A DNA stretch of 64,000 nt from Candidatus Omnitrophota bacterium. Its GTDB lineage: Bacteria; Omnitrophota; Gorgyraeia; JAFGHF01. Each line of letters opens with the position of its first letter. Within the stretch, counting starts at the first letter, position 1. Below the pieces are notes generated by a model. The model did no database searches, was not told where the DNA came from, and saw nothing but the letters and a program-made list of their open reading frames with translations. Positions 29,337 through 46,999 of this stretch are shown piece by piece. The stretch lies in contig CP070837.1 of the NCBI GenBank assembly GCA_020341815.1, positions 692,211 through 756,210 on the forward strand. Reading direction: 5' to 3'. A program made the translations under genes and the position numbers.

Positions 29337-30542
29337 TTAGCTTAGCGGCCTTTCTTTTAAGGGCCGGAAGCGGTATCCCGATTCAGCCCCAGGCAAAGGA
29401 GCCACAGGCTCGGTTAAGAGAAATTTGCCATCCGCAATCCACTCCTTAAGAATGCCGGCAATCTCTCGAGCCTTGGAGTAGCTGGAGAGACTTCCGGTGG
29501 GAACCTCTTTATTCTGCACCGATATCTTTCCGCTTTTAAGCTGGGCATAATTGACTTCCCCTAAACTCCCCGTCTCTCTTTGAGGATAGGCCCGACCATA
29601 GTCAATTATCTGGGTATAGATTTCTTCATCGCGCACCGCAGTATATTTACATATCTCTTCATTAAGAATAGGGATAGGCACGCCAATGCCTACTGTCAGG
29701 GTAACGCCATACCCATACATCGTGGTTCCCACAAGCCACTTGGGGCTCATCTTCTTCAGGTCGCCGATGACCGCAAGAGTACCCGCTGCCTGAGAGGGCG
29801 TGCCGTTTTCATGGCGCTTAACCCCGGGGTTATGCTGGGTACCCTGCCAGGCTACAAAGCCAACCCCTCCCCCTAAGAATATCTTTGTGCCGATACCGAT
29901 AGTTTTATAATAGGGGTCGTTCATAAGCGGTGAAAGACACCCGGCACTACAATAATTGGCATTGCCCAGATGAGGCTTGAGCACTCCCATATAGGTATAG
30001 ATAATACGCTCACTCAGATTAACGGCTACGCTATAGTTCTGATAGCAATTGCGCAGATTAAAAAGCACGGCTTCGTTCAAATCCTTGATATTAATCAGGG
30101 TCTCCAGTTCCCTGCGGGGATAGCAATCCGTACCGTAAGCCGAGGCCTTCAGCACTATGTCTTTGCCCCCTACCAGCTCTTCGATTACATAGGCTCCCCC
30201 GTATTTGAAACTGCCGGGATAGACCTTGTTGCGCGGGTCTTCATCAGGCAAAGCAGCGGCCCCCAGATAAATATCTAAGGCTGCAAAACCGGTATAGACA
30301 GGCACATCGTTAAGATAGGCCCTGCCTCCTCCCAATTTTATTCTGGGCTTGGAGTGGCCGATATTCAAATATGCTCCCGAAGAACACATCGGCCCAAAGG
30401 TGCCGCAGGTGACCACATCCACTTCTTTGGCCGTCTCTCTCAGGCCCTTTTCATCTATGAGGTCCGTAATCTCCTCGGCAGTAACTACAACTGCCTTTCC
30501 CTTCTTTATCTTCTCGTTAATTTCTTGTATCGTCTTAGCCAT
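29337..30542 (-). CDS. Conserved protein, possibly DUF39/COG1900 (sulfur-incorporating homocysteine biosynthesis) family; function uncertain
   Basis: 401 aa, Gly-rich, with no classical motif recognised. The family assignment is from overall similarity as remembered, not verified. Confidence 0.35.
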   Translation of the reverse strand: MAKTIQEINEKIKKGKAVVVTAEEITDLIDEKGLRETAKEVDVVTCGTFGPMCSSGAYLNIGHSKPRIKLGGGRAYLNDVPVYTGFAALDIYLGAAALPDEDPRNKVYPGSFKYGGAYVIEELVGGKDIVLKASAYGTDCYPRRELETLINIKDLNEAVLFNLRNCYQNYSVAVNLSERIIYTYMGVLKPHLGNANYCSAGCLSPLMNDPYYKTIGIGTKIFLGGGVGFVAWQGTQHNPGVKRHENGTPSQAAGTLAVIGDLKKMSPKWLVGTTMYGYGVTLTVGIGVPIPILNEEICKYTAVRDEEIYTQIIDYGRAYPQRETGSLGEVNYAQLKSGKISVQNKEVPTGSLSSYSKAREIAGILKEWIADGKFLLTEPVAPLPGAESGYRFRPLKERPLS

Positions 30543-30587
30543 TTTTTATCTCTTTTTGCTCCCCTATTCTTCGCTTTCGAATTCTTT

Positions 30588-30884
30588 TTAATTAGGCAAA
30601 GGCCGTTTTAACATCTGTTCCAAGAGGGCGGGATTTTTCACTATAGTGAATAGCATTACACCGGCAATAATAGCATAAATTATACCAAGGACTATGCCGG
30701 CAGCAGCCAGCCCCTCTCCCCTGCAATTACTATCGGGCGCAGCAATCCTTTTAAGAGAAAGGATTCCGAAAACAACTGCTGCGATTGCCTTCTCAATCCC
30801 TGCCAGCTGAATAAAAGATATAATTCCAAAAACCAGGGCGGCTATCGCGAACTCATTCATGCGAGCTTTATTGATTTGCTGCAT
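30588..30884 (-). CDS. Small membrane protein (DUF4190-like)
   Basis: 98 aa with two hydrophobic helices of the GxxxG type. Confidence 0.4.
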   Translation of the reverse strand: MQQINKARMNEFAIAALVFGIISFIQLAGIEKAIAAVVFGILSLKRIAAPDSNCRGEGLAAAGIVLGIIYAIIAGVMLFTIVKNPALLEQMLKRPLPN

Positions 30885-31389
30885 CTTCTCCTCCGGATAA
30901 TTGTTCTTTTCTCCTCAACAGTTGCCGGGCATACCTGGAAGTAAGCCCTCCCATTTTTCCCCGGGCTTCCTCTATCTTTTTCTCAACTTCCTTAAGCGTC
31001 AGGCAATTAATCTTTTTCTTCTTTGGCGGCGCCTCTTGCTTGGGCTTAGCCGCTTCTTCCGCAACAGCTTTTTCCTCTGTTTTGGCTTCCTTGCCTTCGG
31101 GTGGCTTCTCCTCTTTTTTCTCTTCTTTTGCTTCTTTCTTGGCTTCGGCTTTCTCTTCCTTCTTTTCCTGGGGCTCTTTCTTGGCCTCGGCCTTTTCCTG
31201 GCTTTTCTCTTCTTTTTTCGGTTCCTTCTTTTCTTGGGGTTCCTTCTTGGCCTCGGCAGCGGGCTTCTGGTGATGAGTCTTCGGTTTTGCTTCCTCAGCG
31301 CTAGGTGCCTTCTTTTCTTTCTTCTCTTCGTGTTCTTTCTTATCGGGCTTCTGGTGCTTATCCTCTGCCTTTTTCTTCTCTTCAGCCAT
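30868..31389 (-). CDS. Lys/Glu-rich low-complexity protein with conserved C-terminal segment
   Basis: 173 aa. Repeated KKEPQEKKEEKAEAKKE units, then ..LTLKEVEKKIEEARGKMGGLTSRYARQLLRRKEQL. Confidence 0.45.
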   Translation of the reverse strand: MAEEKKKAEDKHQKPDKKEHEEKKEKKAPSAEEAKPKTHHQKPAAEAKKEPQEKKEPKKEEKSQEKAEAKKEPQEKKEEKAEAKKEAKEEKKEEKPPEGKEAKTEEKAVAEEAAKPKQEAPPKKKKINCLTLKEVEKKIEEARGKMGGLTSRYARQLLRRKEQLSGGEDAANQ

Positions 31390-31587
31390 CTAAATGTCTC
31401 CTCTTCCTAATTCATGAAGGTTTAGCTTTTTTCTGCAATTCGGGCAGATAAAAGTGTTACTTTCCGGTGCAAGCGAACCCTCCACTTCCTCAACGCTTAA
31501 GGTCTCACCGCAATATGGACATCGGCATAAACGAAGGGGTCGTGAAAAATCTAAGGGTTCCTCTTGATAATCCGGACTATCGGGCAT
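31390..31587 (-). CDS. Small zinc-ribbon protein
   Basis: 65 aa. CRCPYCGE ... CPNCRKK is a pair of CxxC motifs. Confidence 0.4.
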   Translation of the reverse strand: MPDSPDYQEEPLDFSRPLRLCRCPYCGETLSVEEVEGSLAPESNTFICPNCRKKLNLHELGRGDI

Positions 31588-32218
31588 GTTTATTTATTAT
31601 TTTCAAAGCCTGCTCTGGAGTCTCTACTACATTAAATATATCTAAATCTCTTGGGCTAATCATCTTTTCCCTAAGCACCTTGCCTTTGAACCAATGCAAA
31701 AGATCCTGCCAATATTCCCTGTTAAACAGGATTACCGGACGCGCCTCCATTCGGCTGGTCTGAATAAGGGTAATGGCCTCAAAAAACTCATCCATCGTTC
31801 CGTAGCCACCGGGAAAGATAAGATAGGCCTGGCTGTATTTAGCAAACATTACGCGGCGGCAGAAGAAATACCTGAACTCCAAAAGACGAGTGAGATATTC
31901 ATTGGGCTTTTGCTGGATGGGCGTAAGAATATTCAAGCCCACCGATTCGGCCCCGGCTTCCTTGGCGCCTTTATTTGCCGCTTCCATTATCCCCGGGCCG
32001 GCTCCGGTTATAATTGCAAAACCTGCCTTAGCGAAGACTTTGGCTGATTTCTGCGCCAATTTATAGTAGGTGCTGCCGGGCTTAACGCGGGAGGAACCAA
32101 AAACGGAAACTGCTTTGCGAATATCGGAGAGTTCCTCAAAGCCTTCCACAAACTCACTCATAATCCTGAAGATGCGCCAGGGGTCCTCTTTGACAAAATT
32201 ATGCTTTAGCTTGGACAT
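31577..32218 (-). CDS. LOG-family protein (cytokinin riboside 5'-monophosphate phosphoribohydrolase-like, YvdD/TIGR00730)
   Basis: ..VFGSSR.. and GAGPGIMEAANKGA.. motifs within a Rossmann fold. Confidence 0.8.
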   Translation of the reverse strand: MSKLKHNFVKEDPWRIFRIMSEFVEGFEELSDIRKAVSVFGSSRVKPGSTYYKLAQKSAKVFAKAGFAIITGAGPGIMEAANKGAKEAGAESVGLNILTPIQQKPNEYLTRLLEFRYFFCRRVMFAKYSQAYLIFPGGYGTMDEFFEAITLIQTSRMEARPVILFNREYWQDLLHWFKGKVLREKMISPRDLDIFNVVETPEQALKIINKHAR

Positions 32219-33509
32219 GCCTTTTCTCCTTCAAAAAATTATCTCTTACCCATTTCTTGGCTTGAGCCTTACTTTTAAGCTTTCCCTCCAGCTGCATATC
32301 TATCATTTCTCTATGGATTTTACCAAAAATCGGGCCAGGAGTAAAGCCTATTTTTATTAATTCGTAACCGCTCAAAAGCGGCCTGGGGATTGCCGGCTCT
32401 TTTTTGACTTCTTTGTATTTGCTTCTTAAGAAGCGCCATATTGTCAAATCTTTGTGGCTGGCAATACAATCAATGCGGTGAAGTGCAAGCTCCTCCTCAA
32501 AAGTAGGCCGGGCAAAAAGCCTTTTGAGGGTGGCTTCACGCATCTTTGGCGCCTCCATTATACGCATATGGTTTTCCACGCAGGCGACAATATCTTCCCT
32601 GTCTCTATTGGAAAACCTTAGTCTCTTCAGTATCCTATCCGACATCTCCGCACCCAGCTTATCATGCCCGCTAAATCTGATGCGTTCGGCCACCTCAAAA
32701 GTCGCAGGCTTTCCGATATCATGCAGAAGGCAGGCAAAGACCAACACCAAAGAGGGGCTCTTTAGCTTTTTCAGCATCAATAAGGTATGGGCAAATACAT
32801 CTCCTTCGGGATGAAAGGCGCGGGGCTGCTCCACCCCTTTGAGCTTATCTACTTCAGGCAGGATATATCTTAAAAGCCCGGTCTCATCAAGCAGTTTTAA
32901 TCCTAAAGAAGGCCTCTTGCCTGTAAATATCAGAACCAATTCATCGCGAATTCGCTCAAGGCTTGCCTTCTTTATTTCCGCGGCCATTTTCCCGATAGCC
33001 TGCAAGGTTTTATCTTCAATGCTAAAGCCAAGGGTAACGGCAAATCTGACTGCCCGAACAAGCCTTAAAGGGTCCTCTTTAAATCTCGAAGAGGCCTCAC
33101 CTATACAACGGATTTTCTTCCTGCGGATATCACTTCTGCCCCCCACCAAATCAATAATCTTCTTAGCAATAGGCTCATAAGCTAAGCCATTGATAGTAAA
33201 ATCTCTCATTTTTACATCTTCGCTGATGCTTAAGAGGGCTTTTCTTCTCTTGCTTCTAAAAGTGGAAACCTGAAAAGGCATATCATTCCTTATAACTAAT
33301 AATGTGCCAAACTGCGCACCCACGCTATGGGTCTGGCCGGGGAAAATCTTTCTTATCTGGGAAACCTTGGCGCTGGTGGCAATATCAAAGTCCTTGGGCG
33401 CCTTGCGCATTACCATATCCCTTACGCAGCCGCCCACAAAGTAGGCAGAAAAACCCTTACTGCGCAATTTTCTGACAATCCCGGAAGCTAATTGCCTCTT
33501 TTTTACCAT
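32199..33509 (-). CDS. cca: CCA-adding tRNA nucleotidyltransferase with HD domain
   Basis: 436 aa. Pol-beta NTase head FVGGCVRDMVM..DFDIAT, and an HD domain LLHDIGKP. Confidence 0.8.
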   Translation of the reverse strand: MVKKRQLASGIVRKLRSKGFSAYFVGGCVRDMVMRKAPKDFDIATSAKVSQIRKIFPGQTHSVGAQFGTLLVIRNDMPFQVSTFRSKRRKALLSISEDVKMRDFTINGLAYEPIAKKIIDLVGGRSDIRRKKIRCIGEASSRFKEDPLRLVRAVRFAVTLGFSIEDKTLQAIGKMAAEIKKASLERIRDELVLIFTGKRPSLGLKLLDETGLLRYILPEVDKLKGVEQPRAFHPEGDVFAHTLLMLKKLKSPSLVLVFACLLHDIGKPATFEVAERIRFSGHDKLGAEMSDRILKRLRFSNRDREDIVACVENHMRIMEAPKMREATLKRLFARPTFEEELALHRIDCIASHKDLTIWRFLRSKYKEVKKEPAIPRPLLSGYELIKIGFTPGPIFGKIHREMIDMQLEGKLKSKAQAKKWVRDNFLKEKRHVQAKA

Positions 33510-33518
33510 ATCCTAATC

Positions 33519-35363
33519 CTATACCTGAAAGCTTACTCTGACCAGTCCCCTGACGGAGTTGCTTAAATAAATCTCATCGGCATCTATGAGGTCTTTTTCG
33601 AAAAGGATTTTTTCTTCAACCGCCGGCTTATCCTTGCAAAGATATCTTCTATATACCCCATCCAGAAGTCCGCAGGCCACAGGAGGCGTATAAAACCTGC
33701 CCCTTTTTTTGACAAAAATATTGGAGATAGCTCCTTCGGTAATCTCATTCCTCTCGTTACTAAAGATGACATCGTAGAAGCCTCTATCCTTAGCTCTTTT
33801 ATATTCCTGCTCATATATTTTGCGGTTAGTGGTCTTATGATATAAAAAAGGATTATCCGAACAAATCATTTTTCCGCAAAGGAAAATCTTTGCATCTTCT
33901 TTAGCAGCCGATTTCAATAAAGAGCTTTCCAGTTCGATTTTTGCGTCTTTATGCAACAGGAGGCGCGCTTTATACTTATTGCGCCCAAACCTATTTTGCA
34001 GTTTCCCCAATGCTTTCAATACATCATCTTTTCTGTAAAGAAAATTAAAATATTTCGCTGATTTTTCCAGCCTCTTTAGATGCTCATTCAAGAGGAAATA
34101 TCCCTTATCCGGCTGCCAGAGCATAGTTTCAATCAATTGAAACTCTTTTTGCCTCTTAACCAAAAAATCCGCCTTCAGGCGGCATTCGGCGTATTCGCCT
34201 CTTGGGTCGGAGTCATAGACAATGCCGCCTCCTACGCCCAGCTCTCCGGTCTTTCTGCGGCTATCTATCAAAAGAGTGCGGATGGCCACATTAAACGCCC
34301 CGCACTTATCGGGCGAGAAAAAACCGATGCTTCCGGTATATATATTGCGCGGCTCTTTCTCTAATTTTCCGATTAGCTCCATAGTTTTTATCTTAGGCGC
34401 CCCTGTTACCGAACCGGAAGGAAAAATATGCCTGAATATATCAAAGGCCGATTTCTCCTTCAAGCGACCTTCCACAGTTGAGGTCATCTGAAAAAGCGTC
34501 TGGTACTTTTCTATATTAAACAGACGCGGAACTCTTACGCTGCCGACTTTTGAGATTCTGCCTAAATCATTGCGCAGTAAATCCACAATCATTAAATTTT
34601 CGCTTCTGTTTTTAGGGCAATTCTTGAGAGTTACGGCAATTCCGGCGTCTTCTTCCGGGGTCTTGCCTCTTTGGGCCGTGCCTTTCATCGGCCGGGTATA
34701 GATTCTATTTCCCTTTTTTCTGAAAAATAATTCCGGCGAAAAGGAAAGGATATGGAAAGCATCCCCTCCTTTTTTATAAGGGACATTAGCCTTAATAAGA
34801 GCCGAATAGGGGACACTCTGGTTATCTCTCAAATTAAAATATAGACCTAAAGGTGAACCGGAGAAAGAAAACTTAAGCTTAAAGGTATAATTTACCTGAT
34901 AGGTGAGTCCCTGGGCGATTAAATCTTTTATCTTTGTTATTGCCTTAAGGTAAGACTTTTCAGAGATATTTGGGGCAATTTCTTTAATCTGAGCGGGCGA
35001 CTTCCAGGAACCTCTGGCAATATCCTTTTTTCGATGATTGTAAATCAACGGTCGCTTATAGAGGCCGAACCACAAAAGCGGAAAATTAAAACTTTCTTTA
35101 ATTTTTAGCTTCTCTTCAAAGGCACCTTGCGCCTCATAAGAAAGAAAGCCCGCAACGTAATAACCGTCCTTCAGGGCTTTATCCAGCTGGGCGAGTGAGG
35201 CCTCTACCTCATTTATTTTAAAAGCGGAAATTATCCTCTTAGGCCGCAAAAATAGATAGCTTAAATAATTCTGTGCATCGGGCCTGGCAGTCTCCAGAAA
35301 AACAAAGTTCTCTTCGTGTTCTAAGCGCTTTAAAATAGCGGCAATAGTAGGATTTTTTTTCAT
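33519..35363 (-). CDS. pabBC: Bifunctional aminodeoxychorismate synthase component I / aminodeoxychorismate lyase (PabB-PabC fusion)
   Basis: 614 aa. Chorismate-binding domain (..PSGSVTGAPK..) fused to a class-IV aminotransferase-fold C-terminus (..EITEGAISNIF..). Confidence 0.75.
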   Translation of the reverse strand: MKKNPTIAAILKRLEHEENFVFLETARPDAQNYLSYLFLRPKRIISAFKINEVEASLAQLDKALKDGYYVAGFLSYEAQGAFEEKLKIKESFNFPLLWFGLYKRPLIYNHRKKDIARGSWKSPAQIKEIAPNISEKSYLKAITKIKDLIAQGLTYQVNYTFKLKFSFSGSPLGLYFNLRDNQSVPYSALIKANVPYKKGGDAFHILSFSPELFFRKKGNRIYTRPMKGTAQRGKTPEEDAGIAVTLKNCPKNRSENLMIVDLLRNDLGRISKVGSVRVPRLFNIEKYQTLFQMTSTVEGRLKEKSAFDIFRHIFPSGSVTGAPKIKTMELIGKLEKEPRNIYTGSIGFFSPDKCGAFNVAIRTLLIDSRRKTGELGVGGGIVYDSDPRGEYAECRLKADFLVKRQKEFQLIETMLWQPDKGYFLLNEHLKRLEKSAKYFNFLYRKDDVLKALGKLQNRFGRNKYKARLLLHKDAKIELESSLLKSAAKEDAKIFLCGKMICSDNPFLYHKTTNRKIYEQEYKRAKDRGFYDVIFSNERNEITEGAISNIFVKKRGRFYTPPVACGLLDGVYRRYLCKDKPAVEEKILFEKDLIDADEIYLSNSVRGLVRVSFQV

Positions 35364-35368
35364 CTTGA

Positions 35369-36427
35369 TTAGCCGCTATCGGCCACAAATTTAAGCAGGG
35401 ACTTCATTAAATCGAAGCCCTTTTCATAGCCGGGAAAGGCATTTCCCTCCAAAACATAGGCAGTTTTTAAACCTTCGGAAAATATAATATCTATGCCGGC
35501 GAAATCTAATCCGAGTGCGCGGGCGGTCTTTTTTGCTAATTTTTTCAATTGCGCTTTTTTCCCTTTAGCCAGACCTCTTAAAATTATCCCTTTCTTATCG
35601 ATCCTGCCGCCTTGCGACCAGTTTGTAACCCAGACATCGGCCGGAGAAGACTTGGCATACATATAGACCACCCTGCCGAACATAACATATACCCTGAAGT
35701 CAAACCTTCTCGCCTCGAAAGTAGCCGGCGTTATTGCCTCCTCGCAGAGAAAGCCCCTTTTAAGAAGTTCATGGATAAATCTGCGCTTATCCTTAACCCT
35801 GCCAAATCGCCAATCGCAATCATAGGGTCTGCTGAGGATTTTTCCTCTGCGAAATGCGAAATTGGAGATTACGCCTTCTTTATCTATATAAGTGATGCCT
35901 TTTCCTAAGGCCCCAAATCTGGGTTTGATATACAGGCCCATACCTTTATTCAGCATTCTCTGAATATCGATAAACGAAAAAACCTTAAATGTCCGGGGTG
36001 AAAGAATTGCGTTTTTCTCTAATAAAGCTTTACTTGCCTTTTTGTCTCTATCCAGGCAGATTGCTCCTGGCGAATTTAAATATTCTATCTGCCTGCCTTT
36101 GTAGTATTTGGCTATTGTTTTCTCTATCTTTCTGAAAAAACTCTTGAATTCCCGGCCAAATTTTTTATCGCCGTAGATTCTTTCATCGGGATAAATTTCG
36201 ATATTGCGATTCCAGTATTTATAGGGGAAGAAAAAGACGACTAATATTCTGGGGCTCTTTATCGGGGGAATCTTTTTCGAAAGAAGCTGGGAGTAGTTTA
36301 TTACGGCGAGCTCAAGCTTTTTTTCGCCTTTTAATTTCCGGGCGTATCTTACAAACTTTGCAAAAGAGCGCTCAGGTCTCTTTCCCTTTATATATTTATC
36401 GCCGATAACAAGTAAGGCCTTTTTCAT
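35369..36427 (-). CDS. ATP-grasp fold protein (RimK/YheC-YheD-like ligase)
   Basis: 352 aa. ..KPRFGALGKGI.., ..FDFRVYV.., ..NWSQGG.., ..GIDII..EGNAFPG are ATP-grasp motifs. Confidence 0.6.
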   Translation of the reverse strand: MKKALLVIGDKYIKGKRPERSFAKFVRYARKLKGEKKLELAVINYSQLLSKKIPPIKSPRILVVFFFPYKYWNRNIEIYPDERIYGDKKFGREFKSFFRKIEKTIAKYYKGRQIEYLNSPGAICLDRDKKASKALLEKNAILSPRTFKVFSFIDIQRMLNKGMGLYIKPRFGALGKGITYIDKEGVISNFAFRRGKILSRPYDCDWRFGRVKDKRRFIHELLKRGFLCEEAITPATFEARRFDFRVYVMFGRVVYMYAKSSPADVWVTNWSQGGRIDKKGIILRGLAKGKKAQLKKLAKKTARALGLDFAGIDIIFSEGLKTAYVLEGNAFPGYEKGFDLMKSLLKFVADSG

Positions 36428-37362
36428 CGGGGGCTAATTAGCGCTTTGTTTAAATAAGGAGGCAGCCTATCCAAAGAGGCCGAGGCCAGCTTCAAAAGAA
36501 TAGGCAAAACCTGACGGCTGTATCGCGCAGCACTGGATATAGGCGCCAGTCCCGGATAGCCGAATATGCTGATATGGGTAATGCCGTCAACCTCATAAGT
36601 AGGCTTATCTATTAAAGTAGGATGGCAGCTCTCTATGGGGCTGGGATAATCCACGGAAAGGTCAAGAATTATCGCTCCCTTATTCAATAAACAAAGCATA
36701 TCCCTGGTAATCAGGTATTCTTTATTTTCCCGTTTTGCCTGCGGCCAGCAAATAGCGTTTACCACTATATCCTTCCTTCTTAAAAAATGCCTGATGTACC
36801 TGTATTCGGACTTGCGCAGGATCTTAAGCCTGGCCCCCAGATTAAAAGCTACTTTTAAGCTGCCGGTGGCCACCGAACCATATCCCAACATCAAAACACT
36901 GCAGTCAACGGGACTCCTTTTGGCCAGATTGAAAGCCATAAGCATTCCCTGCTCTCCGGCTATGTCGCAACAGCTGATTAAGCGTTCCCCGGCCCTGTTT
37001 CTAATCAGCTCCATGGCCACGGCCTTGGCACCCGCCTTCTTTAACAGCCGCACATATTGAGGGTATTGCTCGGCATGCAGCATACAAAACAAAAGATTAT
37101 TACGCAGAAGCTTAAACTCCTCCGGCAGCGGAGGTTTCAATTTTACCACAATGGCTTTTCTAAACAATTCTTTCCTGCTGGCAATAAGCTTCGCCCCGCA
37201 GCTTTTATATTCGCTATCGGGAATATATATTCTTGCCCCCAGGCCTTTTTCCACAAAGACATCATGCCCCTGTTCAATCAGTCTTTTTACCTCACGCGGT
37301 AAAAGTATGGCTCTTGTCTCCCTGCCCCGGGCAGCAATCTCTTTAACTATCGCTATTTCCAT
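36424..37362 (-). CDS. AlaDH/PNT-family NAD(P)-dependent dehydrogenase (alanine dehydrogenase / carboxyethyl-ornithine synthase-like)
   Basis: It starts MEIAIVKEIAARGRETRAILLP..GHDVFVEKGLG, the AlaDH/PNT N-domain, with Rossmann LGYGSVATGS. The start is trimmed to MEIAI (cat at 37360-37362), which has a strong AGGAGG RBS. Confidence 0.6.
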   Translation of the reverse strand: MEIAIVKEIAARGRETRAILLPREVKRLIEQGHDVFVEKGLGARIYIPDSEYKSCGAKLIASRKELFRKAIVVKLKPPLPEEFKLLRNNLLFCMLHAEQYPQYVRLLKKAGAKAVAMELIRNRAGERLISCCDIAGEQGMLMAFNLAKRSPVDCSVLMLGYGSVATGSLKVAFNLGARLKILRKSEYRYIRHFLRRKDIVVNAICWPQAKRENKEYLITRDMLCLLNKGAIILDLSVDYPSPIESCHPTLIDKPTYEVDGITHISIFGYPGLAPISSAARYSRQVLPILLKLASASLDRLPPYLNKALISPR

Positions 37363-37471
37363 AGAAAATCCTCCTTGTCTTACTATTATATACATAATTG
37401 GCGAAAATCCAAGCAAAAACTTAAAAACTAATGGGGTTTACATTTTAATCAAACTGGCTTATAATAACGCT

Positions 37472-39403
37472 ATGGAATATGACCGTTTTCAAAAAGAAGC
37501 AATTGATTACATTAACCGCGGGCATTCCGTAATTGTCTCCGCCCCTACAGGCAGCGGTAAGACCGTTATCGCCGAACACGTTATTACCGAATGTCTCAAA
37601 AAGGCACAAGGCGTAATCTATACCGCACCCATCAAGGCCCTTTCCAACCAAAAATTCCGCGATTTTCAGGGCCAATACGGGGATAAAATCGGAATCCTCA
37701 CCGGGGACGTCTCCATAAATCCCGAAGCGCCTGTTTTGATTATGACCACAGAAATCTTTCGCAACAAGGCCCTGGAGGACCCCCGCAACCTAAAAAGATA
37801 CGCCTGGATAATCTTCGATGAGGTCCATTATATTGATAATGAGGAACGCGGCACTATCTGGGAAGAGTCGATAATGTTTCTGCCTGCGCACATGAAGATG
37901 CTCTGCCTCTCCGCCACAGTGCCTAATATCGATGAGCTCTCCCGCTGGATCGAATCGGTGCATAAGATGCCGCTTAAGCAGGTAATCGAGAAGCAGCGCC
38001 CGGTGCCTCTGCATTTTTTCTTTCAATGTCAAAACGAAATTCTGGACAGGCTTAAAAAACTGCAGCAAAAAGGATATAAAAAAAGAATAGCTCACAGTTA
38101 TCGGGGCAGACAAAGATTTACTCATGCCTTCTTCAAGCCAAACCGCCTCTCTTCGCTCCTGCACCATCTCCAGGAAAACGACGCCCTGCCCTCTATCTAC
38201 TTTGCCTTTGGCCGCCGTCGCTGCGAGACCCTGGCCCAGGAACTATTTTCCTTTAACTTCCTGACTAAGGACGAAGAAGTCCAGATTAGCTCGCTTTACG
38301 ATTCGCTTTGCGAACGCTTCGACTTAAAGCAGGAAAAAAGTGCGGCCTTACTCACCCCTTTGATTAAGCGCGGCATAGCCTACCATCATGCGGGAATGCT
38401 GCCTACATTAAAAGAGGTAATCGAGCGCCTTTTTACCTCCCGGCTGCTTAAAGTCATCTTTACCACGGAGACCTTTGCCCTGGGGATCAATATGCCCGCG
38501 CGCACCGTGGCCTTTGACGGGATGCGTAAATTCTACGGCCGCTATCACCGCAATCTAACGACGCGCGATTTCTATCAGATGGCCGGGCGCGCCGGAAGGC
38601 GGGGTATGGACAGGGAAGGTTTTGTCTATTGCCGCATCAACCCCAACAGGATTCAGCTGGATGAGGTAAGACGTATCCTCTACGGAAAACCGGAAAGGAT
38701 AACCAGTAAGTTCAATTCCTCTTACGCCACACTCTTACATCTCTACGAAAAACATCAGGAAAAGCTCTATCGGCTTTATCCTCTTTCCCTGCACTATTTT
38801 CAGGAAAAGCCGCGCAGGAGAAAAGGGGCCGAGGCCCAACTCCATGCCAAGGTAAATCTACTCAAAAAATTAGGCCATATCCGGGATAATGCACTGACCC
38901 ATAAAGGCAGATTTGCCGCCTCGCTTTACGGCTATGAACTGCCCTTAGCGGAAATCTATGAAGAAAATGTACTGGAAGAGCTTTCGCCCGTAGAGCTGGG
39001 CATCTTAGCCTGCGCTTTAGTTTATGAGCCGCGCAAAAAAGACCGTCCCCCAAAAATTACCCGTAACGTGCGCGCCTTGAAAGAGGCAACCGAGGAAATT
39101 ACAAAAAATATTCATCGCCTCGAGAAGAACTTCGGTATCTGGCCTAAATCCAAAGAATGCTTCTGGCATCTGGCGCAAGTCACCGAGGCCTGGCTGAGGG
39201 GTACAGACTTTTCCAAGCTGGGGCAATATTCGGATGTGGATGAAGGAGAGCTGATACGTTACTTCCGCATGGGACTGCAGATCTTGCGTGAAATTCGGCA
39301 GGCGCCTGTATCTTCGGATATGCTTAAAGAAAAAATCAATGGGCTTGCGGCTGTCTTTAACCGCGATATTGTCGACGCTGAGAAACAGCTAAGGCTTGAA
39401 TAA
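37472..39403 (+). CDS. Ski2-like DEVH-box superfamily-2 RNA helicase (HelY-like)
   Basis: 644 aa. Motif I APTGSGKT, motif II FDEVHYI, and motif VI QMAGRAGRRG. The start is trimmed to MEYDRFQKEAI (atg at 37472). Confidence 0.8.
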   Translation: MEYDRFQKEAIDYINRGHSVIVSAPTGSGKTVIAEHVITECLKKAQGVIYTAPIKALSNQKFRDFQGQYGDKIGILTGDVSINPEAPVLIMTTEIFRNKALEDPRNLKRYAWIIFDEVHYIDNEERGTIWEESIMFLPAHMKMLCLSATVPNIDELSRWIESVHKMPLKQVIEKQRPVPLHFFFQCQNEILDRLKKLQQKGYKKRIAHSYRGRQRFTHAFFKPNRLSSLLHHLQENDALPSIYFAFGRRRCETLAQELFSFNFLTKDEEVQISSLYDSLCERFDLKQEKSAALLTPLIKRGIAYHHAGMLPTLKEVIERLFTSRLLKVIFTTETFALGINMPARTVAFDGMRKFYGRYHRNLTTRDFYQMAGRAGRRGMDREGFVYCRINPNRIQLDEVRRILYGKPERITSKFNSSYATLLHLYEKHQEKLYRLYPLSLHYFQEKPRRRKGAEAQLHAKVNLLKKLGHIRDNALTHKGRFAASLYGYELPLAEIYEENVLEELSPVELGILACALVYEPRKKDRPPKITRNVRALKEATEEITKNIHRLEKNFGIWPKSKECFWHLAQVTEAWLRGTDFSKLGQYSDVDEGELIRYFRMGLQILREIRQAPVSSDMLKEKINGLAAVFNRDIVDAEKQLRLE

Positions 39404-41729
39404 ACTTTTCCACATATAAAGGCTTAAATTGCTTTCCTGAGCCCTTTCTTAATTCGGCAATAGCCTCTTTTGTAGTCTTGGGTATTGTGTAAGTGCGGCC
39501 CGTGGTCATAGCATCAAAGGCATCGGCAATAGAGATTATAGCGGCTCCCGCAGGAATAAGGTCCTGACCGATGCCATGAGGATAACCCGTCCCATCGTAT
39601 CTTTCATGGTGATGAAGGATTAAGGGAATATACTTCCGGAAAAACTCGATAGGCTCTAAAATCCTCACCCCCGCCTCCGAATGCTGCTTGACAATGGCAT
39701 ATTCTTCGTTTGATAATTTATCTGTTTTGCGCAGGATACTCTCGGGCATTCCTATTTTTCCAATATCGTGTAACAATGCGGCCTGCGAAATAAGCTTACG
39801 CTCTTCCTCCGGCATTCCTAAGGCTTCCGCCAGCATCAAGGCATATTTGCGCACTCTGTCGGAATGGCCTGCGGTATATGTATCCTTGGCCTCCAAGGCC
39901 TTGACCAGTGAACGGATAAACTCAAAAAAGGCCGTCTCCATATCTTTATGCGCCTGGCGCAACTCTTTCAAAGTGGTATTTAAGTCCCTGTACATATCTT
40001 CCAGGTAATCTGAAGCTATATAGCCGACTTCTGCGCCCGGCTTCTTCTCCTGCGCCCCCAGATGGACCTTATCCAGCTTTGAGTCAAATACACAAACCTC
40101 ATTTCGCTTATACCCCCTCTTTAAGGCGGCTTCGGCGCATCTAATCAGGTCGCGGGAGGAGTTTATCGCTACGTGCGGATAAGAAGCCACTCCTATGGAA
40201 AAAATTAATTTTAAGTCTTTGGCCGCTCCGCTAACTTCGAGTTCTTCAATTTCCTCTCTTAATTTTTCTCCCAGCTTAAGTACCTCATCATACTTGAGCT
40301 TAAGCAAAAGAGAGAATTTATTCTCTCCATACCTGGCCAATAAAGCGCCCCGGGGAGAGTTTTCTTTCAACATCTGGGCAATAGCCCGCAAGATGAGGTT
40401 TGCCTGTTCAATTCCATAGTCATCGCTTATCTTGCGGAAATTATCGATACTGAAAATTGCCAGGGATATATTGGACTTGGACCTTATGGCCTCAATTACT
40501 TCCGCCTGCAACCTGAACCTGAAATAACGATATATAAATAGACCCGTAGAGATATCGGTAACGACCAATTTCCTTAATTGTGCGCTGGTTAAGGAAAGCC
40601 TGAAATATTTAAAAATTCCGGCGAAGATAAATATAGATATCCCCACAAAGACTACGGCGAAATAATCCATAGTGTAATTCTTCAGGGACAGGCCAAAATA
40701 TAAAAGCAGGAAACCGGCTGTAAAAGCAACGGAAAAGAGCGCGCTTCTAAAAAAGGCAAGGTTATAACTAAAGAAGGCCAGCAATAAAGCAAAAATAAGC
40801 AAGATTATAAAAGAAACCGCAGCAGGCAGCTCTCTTAAAGAAGTGCCGTTAATTAACATCAGGATATTATTGGCGCATATGCCTACCCCGGGCATCGGAC
40901 CAAAGGGAGTCAGGTAAATATCATGGATAGCCTCGGCCTCTGCCCCCACCAGTACTATCTTATTGCGCAGATTATCAAAAGGAACCTCTTCCTGCATCAC
41001 CTTCCAGAAAGGCACCACCGTAAAATCATCAAAATCTGCCCGGTAGTTAATACTCATCGTGCCGTCTCTGCGCGCGGGAATCCTAACGTCTTCAAAAGTT
41101 ATATTTCGTCCATCGAAAGTAATCTTATCCGCAGGCGCGCCCGCATATCGGGCAGCGACTTTTATCTCAAAGGAATAATCCTTTACTTCGTATTGTGGAG
41201 AAAAAAGAATACCCCAGGTATTACGCACTCTGAAGTCGTCATCCTGGGGCTTATTGATAAAAGCTGTCTCTGCGCCCGATTGCAGAAACGGTTCATATGG
41301 CAGGACATGCTCTCCCTTTTCATCGAAAAAAGAGGCCATAAACACATTGCGAGATTTTTTAATTGCCTGGGCCAAAAGTTTATCGTCTTCGGCGCTGCTT
41401 ACACCAGTAAAAACTAAATCGAAAGATATAAGCTCCGGTTGATAACTATTTAGCTTCTCAAGCAGCTCGGCAAAGGTCCTGCGCGGCCAGGGCCATTTCT
41501 TGCCCATTTTCTTTAAGGAGATATCGTCTATGCTTATAATTATTATGTTTTCGATATTTTTCGGCTGAGGCAGGAGGGCATGCCTAAGGACAGTGGCAAT
41601 ATCCCGGGATTTCCATCTGGGAAGATTAAGAACCTCCAGAGGCACTAAGATAAATGAGTATATTATTAATATCAAGATACCTATTAACAACATCCTCAAA
41701 GTATTTTGGTCACGCCATAATTTAATCAT
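39357..41729 (-). CDS. CHASE2 sensor - degenerate GGDEF - HD-GYP c-di-GMP phosphodiesterase
   Basis: 790 aa. TM/CHASE2 N-terminal half, a degenerate GGDEF (RYGENKF), and an HD-GYP domain (HDIGK ... HHERYDGTGYP). Confidence 0.7.
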   Translation of the reverse strand: MIKLWRDQNTLRMLLIGILILIIYSFILVPLEVLNLPRWKSRDIATVLRHALLPQPKNIENIIIISIDDISLKKMGKKWPWPRRTFAELLEKLNSYQPELISFDLVFTGVSSAEDDKLLAQAIKKSRNVFMASFFDEKGEHVLPYEPFLQSGAETAFINKPQDDDFRVRNTWGILFSPQYEVKDYSFEIKVAARYAGAPADKITFDGRNITFEDVRIPARRDGTMSINYRADFDDFTVVPFWKVMQEEVPFDNLRNKIVLVGAEAEAIHDIYLTPFGPMPGVGICANNILMLINGTSLRELPAAVSFIILLIFALLLAFFSYNLAFFRSALFSVAFTAGFLLLYFGLSLKNYTMDYFAVVFVGISIFIFAGIFKYFRLSLTSAQLRKLVVTDISTGLFIYRYFRFRLQAEVIEAIRSKSNISLAIFSIDNFRKISDDYGIEQANLILRAIAQMLKENSPRGALLARYGENKFSLLLKLKYDEVLKLGEKLREEIEELEVSGAAKDLKLIFSIGVASYPHVAINSSRDLIRCAEAALKRGYKRNEVCVFDSKLDKVHLGAQEKKPGAEVGYIASDYLEDMYRDLNTTLKELRQAHKDMETAFFEFIRSLVKALEAKDTYTAGHSDRVRKYALMLAEALGMPEEERKLISQAALLHDIGKIGMPESILRKTDKLSNEEYAIVKQHSEAGVRILEPIEFFRKYIPLILHHHERYDGTGYPHGIGQDLIPAGAAIISIADAFDAMTTGRTYTIPKTTKEAIAELRKGSGKQFKPLYVEKFIQALAVSQRRQYRG

Positions 41730-42429: not shown

Positions 42430-42818
42430 ATAAGTTGGCTATAATTGCTCTTATCATAGGCTATATAACAATAGCCTTCAGTTTAACAGTATTGATTGCG
42501 CCGAAATTTTTACGTAAGGTTGTTGATTTATTTTCTATAGGCAGTCGGATTTACGCGGTGGGACTATTACGTTTGATTTTAGGCGTGTTATTTTTGATGT
42601 TAGCGACACAGGCAAGATTCTGGGGTTATATAATAGCCCTGGGTCTTGCCTGTAGTGCTTCCGGATTGTTTATTTTCTTTATTCCCCTCAGACGAACGAA
42701 AAAGTTTCTTCAACGTCTAGAAAACCTATCGAACTCTACCCTGCGCATTTTAGCAGCTATTGGTTTTGCTATCTGGGGCCTTCTGATTTATTCTATCCTT
42801 CCGGCGATTCCTCATTAA
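42426..42818 (+). CDS. Hypothetical 4-TM membrane protein
   Basis: 130 aa, hydrophobic, with no known motif. Confidence 0.4.
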   Translation: MNKLAIIALIIGYITIAFSLTVLIAPKFLRKVVDLFSIGSRIYAVGLLRLILGVLFLMLATQARFWGYIIALGLACSASGLFIFFIPLRRTKKFLQRLENLSNSTLRILAAIGFAIWGLLIYSILPAIPH

Positions 42819-44244
42819 GCTTCGGTCTTAAAAATCGCTCAAAAGGCGACTCTTCCTTCTTGGGCTTCTCTTCCGCCTTTGGTTTTTCAGGGCCCGGCTC
42901 CTCTTGCGATGCTTCAGGTTCCCGCTTTTCCTCCGGCTCTTTTTGCTTTGGTTCTTCAGAGGCCGCTTCTACCTGCGTCTCTTCCTGCGGCGCTTCGGGT
43001 TTCTGTTCTTCTTGTTGCAACTCCTGAGGTTCTTCTTCAGGAACTTCTTCGGGCTTTTGTTCTTCCGAAGACTCCTCGACAGAACTTAAGCCTTCCTGTA
43101 TTTCTTCTTGCGATGCCTCAGGCCTTTGCTCTTCTTCCGGTTTTTCCTCCGGCTCTTCAGGCGTCTGTTCTTGTTGTGGTTCTTCAGCGGGAGACTCTGC
43201 CTGTGCTTCCTCCTGTATTACTTCAGGCTCTTCAGGCACCTGTTCCTCTTGAGGTGCCTCAGGCTGCTCTTCGGCTTTCGGTCCTTCTTCGGGCTTTTCT
43301 TCTTCCTTCGGCTCTTCAGCCTGCGCTTCTTCTTGTTGTGGCGTCTCGGGCTCATCAGGCGCCTGTTGCTCCTGGGGTTCGACTTTGGGCTCTTCCTTTA
43401 CTTCCTCGGGCTCCTGTTCTGCTTGAGGCTCCTGGGGCTTTTCCCCTTTAATTTCTTCGGCTTTAGGCCCTTCTTCGGGCTTTTCTTCTTCCTTTGGTTC
43501 TTCAGGTTTCTGCTCCTCCCGGGCCTGCTCAGGAATTGATTCTGCCTTTGCTTCCTTTTCTTTTAGCCTGGCCTCTTTTTCCTGCTCGAGCTCTTTTTTA
43601 GCTCCCTCGAGTTCTCCTTTGGCGCTTTCAAGCTCTCCTTTAGTGCCTTCAAATTCTTTTTTAGCTCCCTCAAGCTCTCCCTTGGCGTCTTCAAGCTCTT
43701 TTTTAGCTCCCTCGAGTTCTCCTTTGGCGCTTTCAAGCTTTTCTTTAAGCTGATTAAGCTCTTTCTCCAAAGCCTCTTTACCTTCTTTAAGTGTCTGGCT
43801 CTCCTGGGAAACCTTGCTTAACTCATCCTCTTTGCCCTGCAGGTCTTTCTCTAACTTCTTACACTTAATCAGCTGCTCATTAGCCTGTTTTTTCTGCTGT
43901 TCCAACTGAATGGGCAAGTCTTTCTTGGCAATAAGCTCTTTTTGCATCTGCTCGGACTTGGTCTTAAGTTCCTGATGAACTCTATCCTTCTCCTGAAGCT
44001 CTTTCTTTAAATTATCCATCTCTTCCTTCAGGCTAGCCGCTTCTGCCTGAAGTTTCTCATCCGTAACAGTAACCTGCCTAAGCTCCCCTTCCTTCTGCCG
44101 AACCTCGTCTTTCAGGCTATCTACCTGCGCCGTATATTTACCAAAGTCTTTTTTCTGCTGTCCCAGCTGCTGAAAAAGAAATAAGATAATTATTACAACC
44201 AAGCTCGCCATCAGTATTGCCAATATTAAAGGTAAAGGCAGCAT
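42793..44244 (-). CDS. Membrane-anchored coiled-coil protein with tandem heptad repeats and acidic Glu/Pro/Gln-rich C-terminal region
   Basis: 483 aa. TM helix, coiled coil, repeated GELEGAKKELEDAK units, and duplicated EEPKEEEKPEEGPKAEE blocks. Confidence 0.5.
   Translation of the reverse strand: MLPLPLILAILMASLVVIIILFLFQQLGQQKKDFGKYTAQVDSLKDEVRQKEGELRQVTVTDEKLQAEAASLKEEMDNLKKELQEKDRVHQELKTKSEQMQKELIAKKDLPIQLEQQKKQANEQLIKCKKLEKDLQGKEDELSKVSQESQTLKEGKEALEKELNQLKEKLESAKGELEGAKKELEDAKGELEGAKKEFEGTKGELESAKGELEGAKKELEQEKEARLKEKEAKAESIPEQAREEQKPEEPKEEEKPEEGPKAEEIKGEKPQEPQAEQEPEEVKEEPKVEPQEQQAPDEPETPQQEEAQAEEPKEEEKPEEGPKAEEQPEAPQEEQVPEEPEVIQEEAQAESPAEEPQQEQTPEEPEEKPEEEQRPEASQEEIQEGLSSVEESSEEQKPEEVPEEEPQELQQEEQKPEAPQEETQVEAASEEPKQKEPEEKREPEASQEEPGPEKPKAEEKPKKEESPFERFLRPKLNEESPEG
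43590..43745 (-). repeat. In-frame tandem DNA repeats (21/42-nt units, 105-nt higher-order period) within the coiled-coil gene
   Basis: gctccctcgagttctcctttggcgctttcaagct recurs at 43601 and 43706, with variants between. Confidence 0.5.
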
Positions 44245-45061: not shown

Positions 45062-46999
45062 TTAAAGAATAAACAGAAGTATCGCCAAACTAAAGAAAAG
45101 AACAACAGTTGCTATCTTTATACCATCTAAATGCCTATTTGTAAATAGGGCAAATTTTTCCGAAGCAAATCCTTTATCGGCCAGAAGAAATACAGCCACC
45201 AAAGGCAGAGTAAAAACCAGATTATATAATATAAGATATAAAAAGGCCGAAGCGCGAAGATGCGGTACCTTTAATACAAAGGCAATAGTAGGAAAGTACA
45301 CCTGCCCCGTGCAGGGAAATTCAAAAAGGGCCACAATGCAGCCGGTTACAAATGTCGCAGCAATAAGAGCGGCTAAAGGTCTTCGACTATCGGCTATATC
45401 TCTTAAACGATCGTGCAGTTTAAGACCGCAACCTTTCATCTGGCCTGTCTTTTTATATCTTATGTAGTCACAAAGGTTATAAACACCCAAACCCAACACC
45501 AATAAAGCAATGGCATAATAAATCAGGCGGGACAGACGAGAAAAGACCTCTAATCTTTGCAGTCCCTGAAAAATGCCTAAGCCAATGGCAAGATAGGTTA
45601 AAAAGACACTGATAATAAAAGTAGCCCCCACGCAGGCAATCTGGCGGCGCCCGTAACTATTTAAAGCCAGCAAAGAGACAAAAAAAATCAAGGTGGCAAA
45701 GGCGCAAGGGTTGATACCGTCAATTAATCCGGCGGTAATTACCAGGGCCGGACTGAAAGTGGAAAAATTATCAATTATGGCATTATCTCCTCCTGCCTCT
45801 ATTCTTTCCGCAGCTACTGCTTCCTGTTCCGATAAAGCTTTAATAGCTCCTTTAAGCTCTTTCTTTATTTGTTCCTTTCCCCTTAAGGCTATATTGGGCA
45901 AAAACACCTCGGGGATAGGACCTTTAGATAGCCCGTATTCCTTCTCCATCTTCAATTTGAGCGCAAGCGCATCGCTATCCGATATATTATGGTAATTTAT
46001 TTCGATCTTATCTTTATATTCTGACTCTATCTCCGACAAAAGCCTATTCTTTATTTCCCGGCAGCTTGAACAGGCATTGGAATAGAAGAAGTCTATTGCG
46101 ATAACTCCGGATGCAACTTTTCTTGCAGCAGAAGCCAATGCCTTTCTCTTAAAAGGCTCATATTGTTTAAGCCCTTCTAAATTAGGGATAAGATAGACAT
46201 TTTCCCATAAAAAGGTGGGTGAGCGCTTTATCTGTAAACTTTCCGCCTCTTTAGAGTCATCCTTAAGTATCTCTAAGGCCCATTCTTTTTTGGATTCTAT
46301 AATATCCGCAGAGATTCCTAATTCCTTAAGCGCCTCTTCTCTATTTTTATCCTGGATGAGCAAAAGATAATCCCGGAATTTATCGGGATAGTGTTTCTGA
46401 ATAATAATCTGGGCTATGTCTTCCTTTGTCTCGCTAGGCCCATAAAAAGAGGATATGCCAAACTCATGAACCTTAACCAGGTATCTTAAATTAAGGTCTA
46501 TATCTATATCTCTCTGCCTGATAAAATCGATTAGCTCTGCCTGAGTAGTCTTTGAGTAAGGACAAAATGCCCCCACAAACATATCCAGCCTGTTGGGTTT
46601 TCTTTTTCTGTCCAAAAGCATAACAGTGCCCAGCTTCAACTGCTCATCGGGAATCACATAATAGTCTTTAACCTTAACCACCATCTTGTGACGGACCATA
46701 TGAAAGAACGCGTCACGATTGGCAATAGATTTATCGTAAATAACGAAAGGGACAAACTTGATATCCAGCTCCTTTATGTATTTACGCGCCTGGGTGGAAT
46801 TATATTCGAGATAGGTCTCGCGAGAATCGGGAAAGAGTGTTTTTATGCTTTGCCTTAACGTGGAATTGACGCCTGCGAGGTCTCTTGAGGAAATAAGGGT
46901 ATAATTAAGCTGCTCTTCGGACTTACCGAAAGCTAAAGCTGAATATAAAAATGCGCTCAAAATAATCGCAATAGAAAGTATGGATAATATTTTTTTCAT
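45062..46999 (-). CDS. DsbD/CcdA-type transmembrane disulfide-transfer domain fused to a large N-terminal periplasmic thioredoxin-like region
   Basis: 645 aa. Signal peptide, a CxxC (NACSSCREI) periplasmic region, and a C-terminal CcdA-like TM core (..ITAGLIDGINPCAFATL..). Confidence 0.55.
   Translation of the reverse strand: MKKILSILSIAIILSAFLYSALAFGKSEEQLNYTLISSRDLAGVNSTLRQSIKTLFPDSRETYLEYNSTQARKYIKELDIKFVPFVIYDKSIANRDAFFHMVRHKMVVKVKDYYVIPDEQLKLGTVMLLDRKRKPNRLDMFVGAFCPYSKTTQAELIDFIRQRDIDIDLNLRYLVKVHEFGISSFYGPSETKEDIAQIIIQKHYPDKFRDYLLLIQDKNREEALKELGISADIIESKKEWALEILKDDSKEAESLQIKRSPTFLWENVYLIPNLEGLKQYEPFKRKALASAARKVASGVIAIDFFYSNACSSCREIKNRLLSEIESEYKDKIEINYHNISDSDALALKLKMEKEYGLSKGPIPEVFLPNIALRGKEQIKKELKGAIKALSEQEAVAAERIEAGGDNAIIDNFSTFSPALVITAGLIDGINPCAFATLIFFVSLLALNSYGRRQIACVGATFIISVFLTYLAIGLGIFQGLQRLEVFSRLSRLIYYAIALLVLGLGVYNLCDYIRYKKTGQMKGCGLKLHDRLRDIADSRRPLAALIAATFVTGCIVALFEFPCTGQVYFPTIAFVLKVPHLRASAFLYLILYNLVFTLPLVAVFLLADKGFASEKFALFTNRHLDGIKIATVVLFFSLAILLFIL

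Follow-up and report, generated by a model that had tools for sequence, protein, structure and literature searches.

A dehydrogenase and ATP-grasp ligase gene pair conserved in Omnitrophota, separable from the PabB-PabC fusion gene beside it

Do three genes that lie almost end to end in the genome of an uncultured bacterium form one functional unit? The question is raised by a 64,000-nucleotide stretch of the metagenome-assembled genome of a Candidatus Omnitrophota bacterium (assembly GCA_020341815.1, contig CP070837.1, positions 692,211 to 756,210 of the forward strand), hereafter the window. Its minus strand carries a gene for a 312-residue dehydrogenase of the AlaDH/PNT family (36424-37362), a gene for a 352-residue ATP-grasp ligase (35369-36427), both assigned by Pfam, and a gene for a 614-residue PabB-PabC fusion, PabBC (33519-35363). 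The first two genes overlap by 4 nucleotides (nt; 36424-36427), and a 5-nt spacer (35364-35368) separates the ligase gene from the fusion gene. The open reading frame (ORF) of the dehydrogenase is listed as 36424..37416; we took the ATG at 37362 as its actual start, so that the protein begins MEIAIVKE. The original prediction for this locus, made from the sequence alone, was right about the genes themselves: the ORF list, Pfam and NCBIfam place every element that it listed, the three minus-strand genes and then cca, a LOG-family gene and small proteins, where it had put them, and Pfam and NCBIfam scores bear out its calls of an AlaDH/PNT-like dehydrogenase, an ATP-grasp ligase and a PabB-PabC fusion. 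Its further proposal, that the three gene products together make a modified side chain derived from para-aminobenzoate (pABA) or of pterin type, found no support, as PabBC is not co-conserved with the other two genes.

To place the locus among its relatives we sampled 25 related loci, 22 of them from contigs representing one genome per species and three by exact protein look-up, located the homologues of every gene of the window's operon in them and then clustered all ORFs. The genes for dehydrogenase and ligase stand side by side on the same strand in the window, as they do in 24 of the 25 related loci, and the gap between them has a median of 2 nt and is no longer than 35 nt in 23 of the 25. 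Across the Omnitrophota loci examined the dehydrogenase is 61-82% and the ligase 40-68% identical, the loci that bear the pair span at least six neighbourhood types, the Omnitrophota-type pair is repeated in further loci (L034, L037-L041 and L058), and at least one Auribacterota locus carries it too. Outside the window's own clade the pair is found between two Band_7 genes and genes for 4HBT and CNNM proteins, between a DinB gene and genes for a CitMHS transporter, an Na_H_Exchanger and an Fe-ADH, between an SBF gene and a methyltransferase gene, and in several one-off arrangements besides. The functional unit looks to be a two-gene module conserved across the sampled Omnitrophota loci, not a three-gene one, and from their layout the dehydrogenase and ligase genes appear to be translationally coupled.

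The 120 homologues listed with an organism name all come from Omnitrophota or Aureabacteria, except for one dehydrogenase match that is labelled only ‘bacterium’. In the public annotations that we encountered, the two proteins mostly go by ‘hypothetical protein’ or by a generic name; the ligase of the window is itself 100% identical to the NCBI entry ‘hypothetical protein JSV30_03900’. We found no paper on the dehydrogenase-ligase pair in the literature searched, and neither protein matched a defence-system family in PADLOC at E<=0.01. Among the transporters near AlaDH-like genes, Na_H_Exchanger and PTS_EIIA_2 proteins, joined in one group by a CitMHS protein of the di-/tricarboxylate type, recur beside the gene in three arrangements (L003, L013, L016, L017, L020-L023, L040, L043 and L049).

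The fusion gene is conserved quite differently. PabBC lies near the pair solely in the window's own clade (L004-L010, with dehydrogenases at least 75% identical), where it comes straight after the ligase gene in three of eight loci (the window, L004 and L010); in the other five it is 971-2081 nt away, and a gene for a protein-isoaspartate methyltransferase or an opposite-strand gene for a lysine/glutamate (K/E)-rich protein intervenes. Within 10 kb of the pair PabBC is absent from the 16 other Omnitrophota and Auribacterota loci, which represent at least five other neighbourhood types. Furthermore, the helicase gene upstream and the cca and LOG-family genes downstream are just as syntenic as PabBC within the window's clade, and we regard PabB-PabC, cca, LOG and the other operon genes as simply co-transcribed neighbours in a compact genome, the contig being 1.55 Mb long. 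The original prediction had called for a comparison of gene neighbourhoods and had named a lack of co-conservation in relatives as the outcome that counts against the three-gene idea: co-conservation was found for the dehydrogenase and the ligase and not for PabBC, which is the outcome so named. The fusion itself is a clear case, as it reaches the equivalog score of pabB (TIGR00553; 351.9 bits against a cut-off of 328.4 in NCBIfam) and matches Pfam Chorismate_bind with 278 bits and Aminotran_4 with 141 bits over residues 409-611. The folC gene that had been claimed for this organism was borne out as a folC-like gene on the minus strand (15108-16433; Mur_ligase_M and Mur_ligase_C, 441 residues), but it is flanked by mnmE and a gene for phosphoglycerate mutase, 19 kb from pabBC.

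What kind of enzymes, then, does the pair encode? Both Pfam domains of the dehydrogenase pass their cut-offs (AlaDh_PNT_N, PF05222, with 97.1 bits against 30.4; AlaDh_PNT_C, PF01262, with 67.2 against 23), and its AlphaFold2 model (mean predicted local distance difference test, pLDDT, 89) superimposes on the alanine dehydrogenase (AlaDH) structure 1pjb with a template modelling (TM) score of 0.85. The AlaDH equivalog of NCBIfam, TIGR00518, is not reached, with 128 bits in two separate stretches against a cut-off of 391.85. An exhaustive HMMER search returned 27 cluster representatives at E<1e-30, all short (about 310-320 residues) and 30-50% identical, beyond which the matches are ordinary 370-residue alanine dehydrogenases. 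The protein scores 100-144 bits against canonical AlaDH and 100-136 bits against proteins named as N5-(carboxyethyl)ornithine synthase (CEOS). Judged by these comparisons, the dehydrogenase belongs to a short AlaDH/PNT subfamily of its own that is uncharacterised.

Three known enzymes offer themselves for comparison. L-alanine dehydrogenase is the best match in sequence and fold, and its residues R15, K75, H96, E118 and D270 are all conserved; it differs in being about 55 residues longer and in having Leu129 and N300-M301 where the dehydrogenase has Arg and G-Y. CEOS (EC 1.5.1.24, Lactococcus lactis type) resembles the dehydrogenase in its superfamily, its length of about 313 residues and its short NAD domain, CEOS-named proteins share a Gln three residues past the catalytic His (H-x-x-Q), and JGI gives the name N5-(carboxyethyl)ornithine synthase to some members of the dehydrogenase clade. 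However, the CEOS-named proteins of NCBI and JGI (P0419, P0354) form a separate clade that is about 27% identical to the dehydrogenase and no closer to it than canonical AlaDH is; P0419, P0354 and P0293 score 231-279 bits among themselves against 100-136 bits to the dehydrogenase, in a comparison with proteins that carry the name. At the conserved Glu they read W-E where the dehydrogenase has M-E, their residue in the column of R127 is not Arg, and the NCBIfam scan gave no CEOS model match for the dehydrogenase. Saccharopine dehydrogenase (SDH; yeast Lys1, or the corresponding domain of human AASS) shares the superfamily and a short NAD domain as well as four residues, namely the first and the second Arg, the Lys and the Glu. 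Its similarity to the dehydrogenase is confined to the N-domain (E 2e-5 with a single sequence, 8e-9 with a profile; 44-47 bits in BLASTP), its Lys99 and Gln101 are not kept, and the Omnitrophota pair comes without accompanying lysine-pathway genes. The earlier description of the protein as CEOS- or opine-like and not a bona fide AlaDH finds support in the 128 against 392 bits and in the second Arg, while the protein falls outside the CEOS-named clade.

The residues of the active site can be followed in an alignment of the family with the reference sequences of yeast SDH and Mycobacterium tuberculosis AlaDH, each of which is 100% identical to its PDB chain. R17, K76, H96, E118 and D238 of the dehydrogenase correspond to R15, K75, H96, E118 and D270 of AlaDH (M. 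tuberculosis numbering), and all 24 family members keep R17, K76, H96 and D238. R17, R127, K76 and H96 likewise align with R18, R131, K77 and H96 of yeast SDH; MAFFT sets the His column two residues off, which we took as a local misalignment. R127 never varies, either among the 24 Omnitrophota sequences or in the six distant members of the clade; its column holds R131 in yeast SDH and Leu129 in M. tuberculosis AlaDH, at the same distance from the A-G motif that follows downstream. In AlaDH, Leu129/Leu130, Met133 and Asn300-Met301 line what we take to be a small, hydrophobic pocket for the methyl group; at these positions the dehydrogenase has the invariant Arg for Leu129, Cys for Met133 and Gly-Tyr for Asn300-Met301. 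In the human homologue of the saccharopine enzyme, Arg39 and Arg146 bind the carboxylates of saccharopine beside the catalytic Lys93 and His111 (PMC13174811). From the conserved His-to-Arg spacing, human Arg146 would be the counterpart of yeast R131, and we infer that R127 is a second carboxylate-binding Arg.

The NAD domain adds to this picture. It is without two segments that AlaDH possesses, and SDH and the CEOS-named proteins are without the same two. After beta-strand 2, at the position of the Asp that binds the NAD ribose in AlaDH, the dehydrogenase has R-K; in the human enzyme a Ser-Arg at the post-beta-2 position accounts for the use of NADPH (PMC9490328), and use of NADP(H) by the dehydrogenase is plausible. 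Taken together, the conserved catalytic residues, R127 and the features of the NAD domain point to an active site that would suit a substrate or product with two carboxylates, that is an opine-type amino acid or a dicarboxylic 2-oxo acid, over plain alanine.

The partner is an ATP-grasp protein that passes the gathering score of Pfam ATPgrasp_YheCD (PF14398; 59.5 bits against 26.8, over residues 144-333) and matches RimK with 27 bits; we know of no established biochemical function for the YheC/D-like family. All NCBIfam matches stay below their cut-offs: MptN with 78.1 bits against 350, the RimK family TIGR00768 with 61.7 against 143.4, STM4014 with 58 against 175 and CofF with 22.3 against 300. 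We read the MptN match as no evidence of a link to pterins, because its 78 bits are about the level of the generic RimK-family match (62 bits). Foldseek searches with the AlphaFold2 model (pLDDT 88.5) placed ArgX/LysX, RimK and PsnB at the top with E-values of 1e-14 to 1e-12, followed by Ddl and ITPK1, and a profile search of PDB sequences found RimK at 4e-7. The window protein keeps the ATP-grasp motifs K168, D243/R245, N269/Q272/G273/G274 and E327-x-N329; N329 is H or Q in most family members. The nucleotide and Mg motifs of the ligase are largely intact. The 120 N-terminal residues hold invariant family-specific motifs (FFPY.YWN..IE.Y and RIYGD..FG) with no match elsewhere. Fold and nucleotide and Mg motifs are shared with the RimK/LysX/ArgX/MptN/CofF group and with YheC/D, but identity to that group is 13-17% and the equivalog and subfamily cut-offs are widely missed; no gene for a LysW-like carrier or for S6 was found near the pair. 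By its predicted structure the ligase is a putative ATP-grasp amide ligase of RimK/LysX-like fold. The subtyping that the original prediction had recommended thus came out on the side of the Pfam YheCD family and a RimK/LysX-like fold, the equivalog or family cut-offs of MptN, CofF and RimK all being missed.

More distant relatives of the dehydrogenase keep other company. A 52%-identical relative (L025, 1230-5450) has no ATP-grasp gene and is directly followed by genes for an aspartate 4-decarboxylase (768 bits) and an Asp:Ala antiporter (592 bits), both above their NCBIfam cut-offs. A 47%-identical relative (L028/L036) follows three genes of the ATPgrasp_ST type in a surface-polysaccharide cluster with CapK-like, glycosyltransferase, PGA_cap, FemAB and Wzy genes. 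At 36% identity, one relative (L029/L030; L029, 1333-3797) shares a 4-nt overlap with murE (459 bits, cut-off 373), a hint that in its lineage the enzyme has to do with the diamino acid in position 3 of peptidoglycan, and another (L031/L032) follows the gene of a lysine 2,3-aminomutase, AblA (741 bits against 525), with a GNAT gene opposite. In about ten loci, at least some of them from Promethearchaeota, a 35-40% identical relative follows a gene for a KamA-family radical SAM protein, and several of these KamA-associated loci also carry a Ddl-like ATP-grasp gene and a second AlaDH-like paralogue. The partner ligases of the dehydrogenase clade are not homologous to one another. The clade is recurrently paired with ATP-dependent amide ligases or with enzymes of lysine, aspartate or alanine.

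Two further observations concern these loci. The KamA-associated ones (L026, 4390-8659; L043-L050, L054, L056 and L057) show an enzyme logic like that of PylB/PylC/PylD, with no match to a Pyl model. In L025 (421-1233), L043, L056 and L057, which belong to unrelated lineages, a protein of about 270 residues with no Pfam or NCBIfam match is encoded by the next gene upstream of either the AlaDH-like gene or the radical SAM gene that partners it.

We tentatively propose, at a likelihood somewhat short of even, that the pair links an amide ligase with a dehydrogenase for opine-type or dicarboxylic amino acids. With NAD(P)H as reductant, the dehydrogenase would condense pyruvate or 2-oxoglutarate, as the 2-oxo acid, with ammonia or, as we think likelier, with the amino group of an amino acid such as lysine or ornithine, and its product would be an N-(carboxyalkyl), ‘opine-type’ or a dicarboxylic amino acid, as with SDH and CEOS. 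The ligase would then turn a carboxylate into its acyl phosphate and form an amide bond involving this product, which might serve in decoration of a surface glycan or the cell wall, as an osmolyte or as a polycarboxylate metabolite. That bacteria combine opine-forming and amide-ligating reactions is known because opine-type amino acids occur amide-linked in the surface glycans of Providencia, namely N-epsilon-(1-carboxyethyl)-L-lysine in P. rustigianii O14 and alanopine in P. alcalifaciens O35 (PMC10609480). Such amidation calls for an opine-forming dehydrogenase and an ATP-dependent amide ligase, like the pair, a likeness at the level of chemistry; the 47%-identical relative, set among three sugar-transfer-associated ATP-grasp genes in its polysaccharide cluster, resembles it further, whereas the Omnitrophota pair loci lie outside polysaccharide clusters.

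Several observations weigh against this proposal. Among solved structures, those nearest to the dehydrogenase in sequence are alanine dehydrogenases (E 1e-40; SDH reaches 1e-5), and L025, with its alanine-forming decarboxylase and alanine antiporter, is a context that suits a plain alanine dehydrogenase and the one locus to favour a substrate related to alanine or aspartate. The contexts of the distant relatives differ among themselves, and the H-x-E-Q motif that is typical of the Omnitrophota dehydrogenases is missing in the KamA-associated members, therefore it is uncertain whether a substrate can be transferred from these to the window protein. The Omnitrophota neighbourhoods contain no consistent pathway partner beyond transporters (CitMHS, Na_H_Exchanger), and a metabolic link to pABA could in principle exist without adjacency. 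A more ambitious version of the proposal, which we consider possible but on balance doubtful, is a two-step pathway that has escaped recognition and is maybe widespread in Omnitrophota: a new AlaDH/PNT subfamily would build an N-(carboxyalkyl) opine-type amino acid out of a 2-oxo acid and an amine (lysine, ornithine or one akin to them), and a dedicated ATP-grasp ligase would then fix this by an amide bond onto an envelope component or make it into a polycarboxylate small molecule, such as an osmolyte or metallophore, with the KamA-type modules of Promethearchaeota and the murE-overlapping modules as variations.

The alternative that survives best, unlikely as we hold it to be, is that of a divergent but ordinary L-alanine dehydrogenase whose partner adds alanine to a dipeptide, the cell wall or a surface polymer. 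The top rank of AlaDH among sequence and fold matches and the retention of its catalytic residues are what such an enzyme would show, the aspartate 4-decarboxylase beside the L025 relative makes alanine and is accompanied by the Asp:Ala antiporter, and the MurE and FemAB contexts hint at the cell envelope. Against it stand a score far under the AlaDH equivalog cut-off, the invariant Arg at the hydrophobic Leu129 position and the two AlaDH-specific segments that are missing from the dehydrogenase. Furthermore, a housekeeping AlaDH would have no need for the strict coupling to a ligase that is seen in 24 of 25 loci.

The second Arg can also be read in another way, as a ligand for the distal carboxylate of a dicarboxylic 2-oxo acid in an ammonia-dependent dehydrogenase that makes glutamate or aspartate, with a RimK-like ligase adding the product, for example as alpha-glutamyl tails on a protein or metabolite. 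We regard this as improbable. Its attraction is that the ligase families nearest to ours, RimK, MptN and CofF, are alpha-L-glutamate ligases, that the L028 cluster combines PGA_cap with ATP-grasps described as ‘alpha-L-glutamate ligase-like’, that glutamate and lysine 2,3-aminomutase are equally good assignments for the KamA-family partner by score, and that aspartate is the substrate of the decarboxylase in L025. To our knowledge, however, no member of the AlaDH/PNT superfamily is a glutamate or aspartate dehydrogenase, the partner in L031 is a lysine 2,3-aminomutase above its cut-off, that in L029 is MurE, and no gene for a carrier or target protein is evident beside the pair.

A reversed order of reactions, in the manner of PylC and PylD, would begin with the ligase coupling an amine and a diamino acid, whose free omega-amino group the dehydrogenase would go on to oxidise, leading to ring closure. 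The Promethearchaeota-type loci, which unite a KamA-family radical SAM protein, a Ddl-like ATP-grasp and two AlaDH-like paralogues, lend themselves to such a scheme, but for the window we consider it very improbable: even at permissive thresholds neither protein matches PylC or PylD (no NCBIfam model at E<=0.01, and none among PDB sequences at E<=1 with family profiles), the Omnitrophota loci are without a radical SAM partner, and the Omnitrophota ligase is RimK-like and not Ddl-like.

Least supported among the models weighed, and hardly credible to us, is the joint synthesis of a modified pABA-derived or pterin-type cofactor side chain, such as a pABA-amino acid conjugate, by all three proteins: the contiguity and probable co-transcription of the three genes, the retention of their order in L004 and L010, the rank of the tetrahydromethanopterin:alpha-L-glutamate ligase MptN as top NCBIfam match of the ligase and the folC-like gene within the window speak for it, but outside the window's clade PabBC is missing within 10 kb of the pair in all 16 loci, unrelated genes come between them in five of the eight clade loci, helicase, cca and LOG are no less syntenic, the MptN score is near that of a generic RimK match, and the distant relatives of the dehydrogenase are found beside enzymes of lysine, of aspartate and of the cell envelope but in no case beside folate genes.

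The locus has the layout of a probable operon. Upstream of the dehydrogenase gene, a 106-nt intergenic region is common to this gene and a divergently transcribed gene for a Ski2-like helicase. On its minus strand we read off a ribosome-binding site AAGGAGG (37376-37370), 7 nt upstream of the ATG at 37362, and ahead of this a putative -10 hexamer TATAAT (37390-37385), from which a promoter is inferred ahead of the dehydrogenase gene. Beyond PabB-PabC, the Pfam and NCBIfam scans and the ORF list give, all on the minus strand, cca (32199-33509), the gene for the LOG-family protein (TIGR00730; 31577-32218), genes for a 65-residue zinc-ribbon protein and a DUF4190 protein (both within 29337-33509), a gene for a 173-residue K/E-rich protein with lysine/glutamate-rich repeats (30868-31389) and, as the last operon gene, HcyBio (29337-30542), which encodes a methanogen-type homocysteine-biosynthesis protein (500 bits). 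The K/E-rich protein has no family match, and just about 40-75 of its residues match in the relatives L006, L009 and L010. A consensus scan found a terminator-like hairpin of eight pairs, six of them G-C, after HcyBio (29295-29275, minus strand), and no minus-strand terminator of comparable strength between 37362 and 29337. The genes from cca to HcyBio (29337-33509) are tightly packed and keep their order in L006, L009 and L010; they make up the rest of a probable operon as functionally unrelated housekeeping genes. The whole from 37362 to 29337 looks like one operon, nine genes long and mixed in its housekeeping functions, within a genome that is tightly packed.

Some other features of the window may be recorded. 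Genes for an FMN reductase and a TonB-dependent receptor lie just beyond the hairpin. The Ski2-like DSHCT helicase gene (37469-39403) is convergent with a minus-strand signalling gene of the CHASE2-GGDEF-HD-GYP (HD_5) type (39357-41729), and the 3' ends of the two overlap by about 47 nt. A minus-strand gene at 50405-51697 encodes a 430-residue fusion of an OMP-decarboxylase/HUMPS (hexulose-phosphate-synthase-like) domain and an RraA-like aldolase domain, and two large minus-strand ORFs, of 483 residues (42793-44244) and 645 residues (45062-46999), have no Pfam match at E<=1e-6.

On a practical level, the negative result on the PabBC link keeps an unsupported annotation as a ‘modified folate or pterin pathway’ from spreading. 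What is left standing is an uncharacterised dehydrogenase-ligase module across the sampled Omnitrophota loci, together with a new short AlaDH/PNT subfamily. The clade of the dehydrogenase occupies the gap left between alanine dehydrogenase, CEOS and saccharopine dehydrogenase, and could yield a new amine-forming biocatalyst. Omnitrophota are a widespread uncultured phylum, and the tight pairing of the two genes suggests a function that is important to these organisms.

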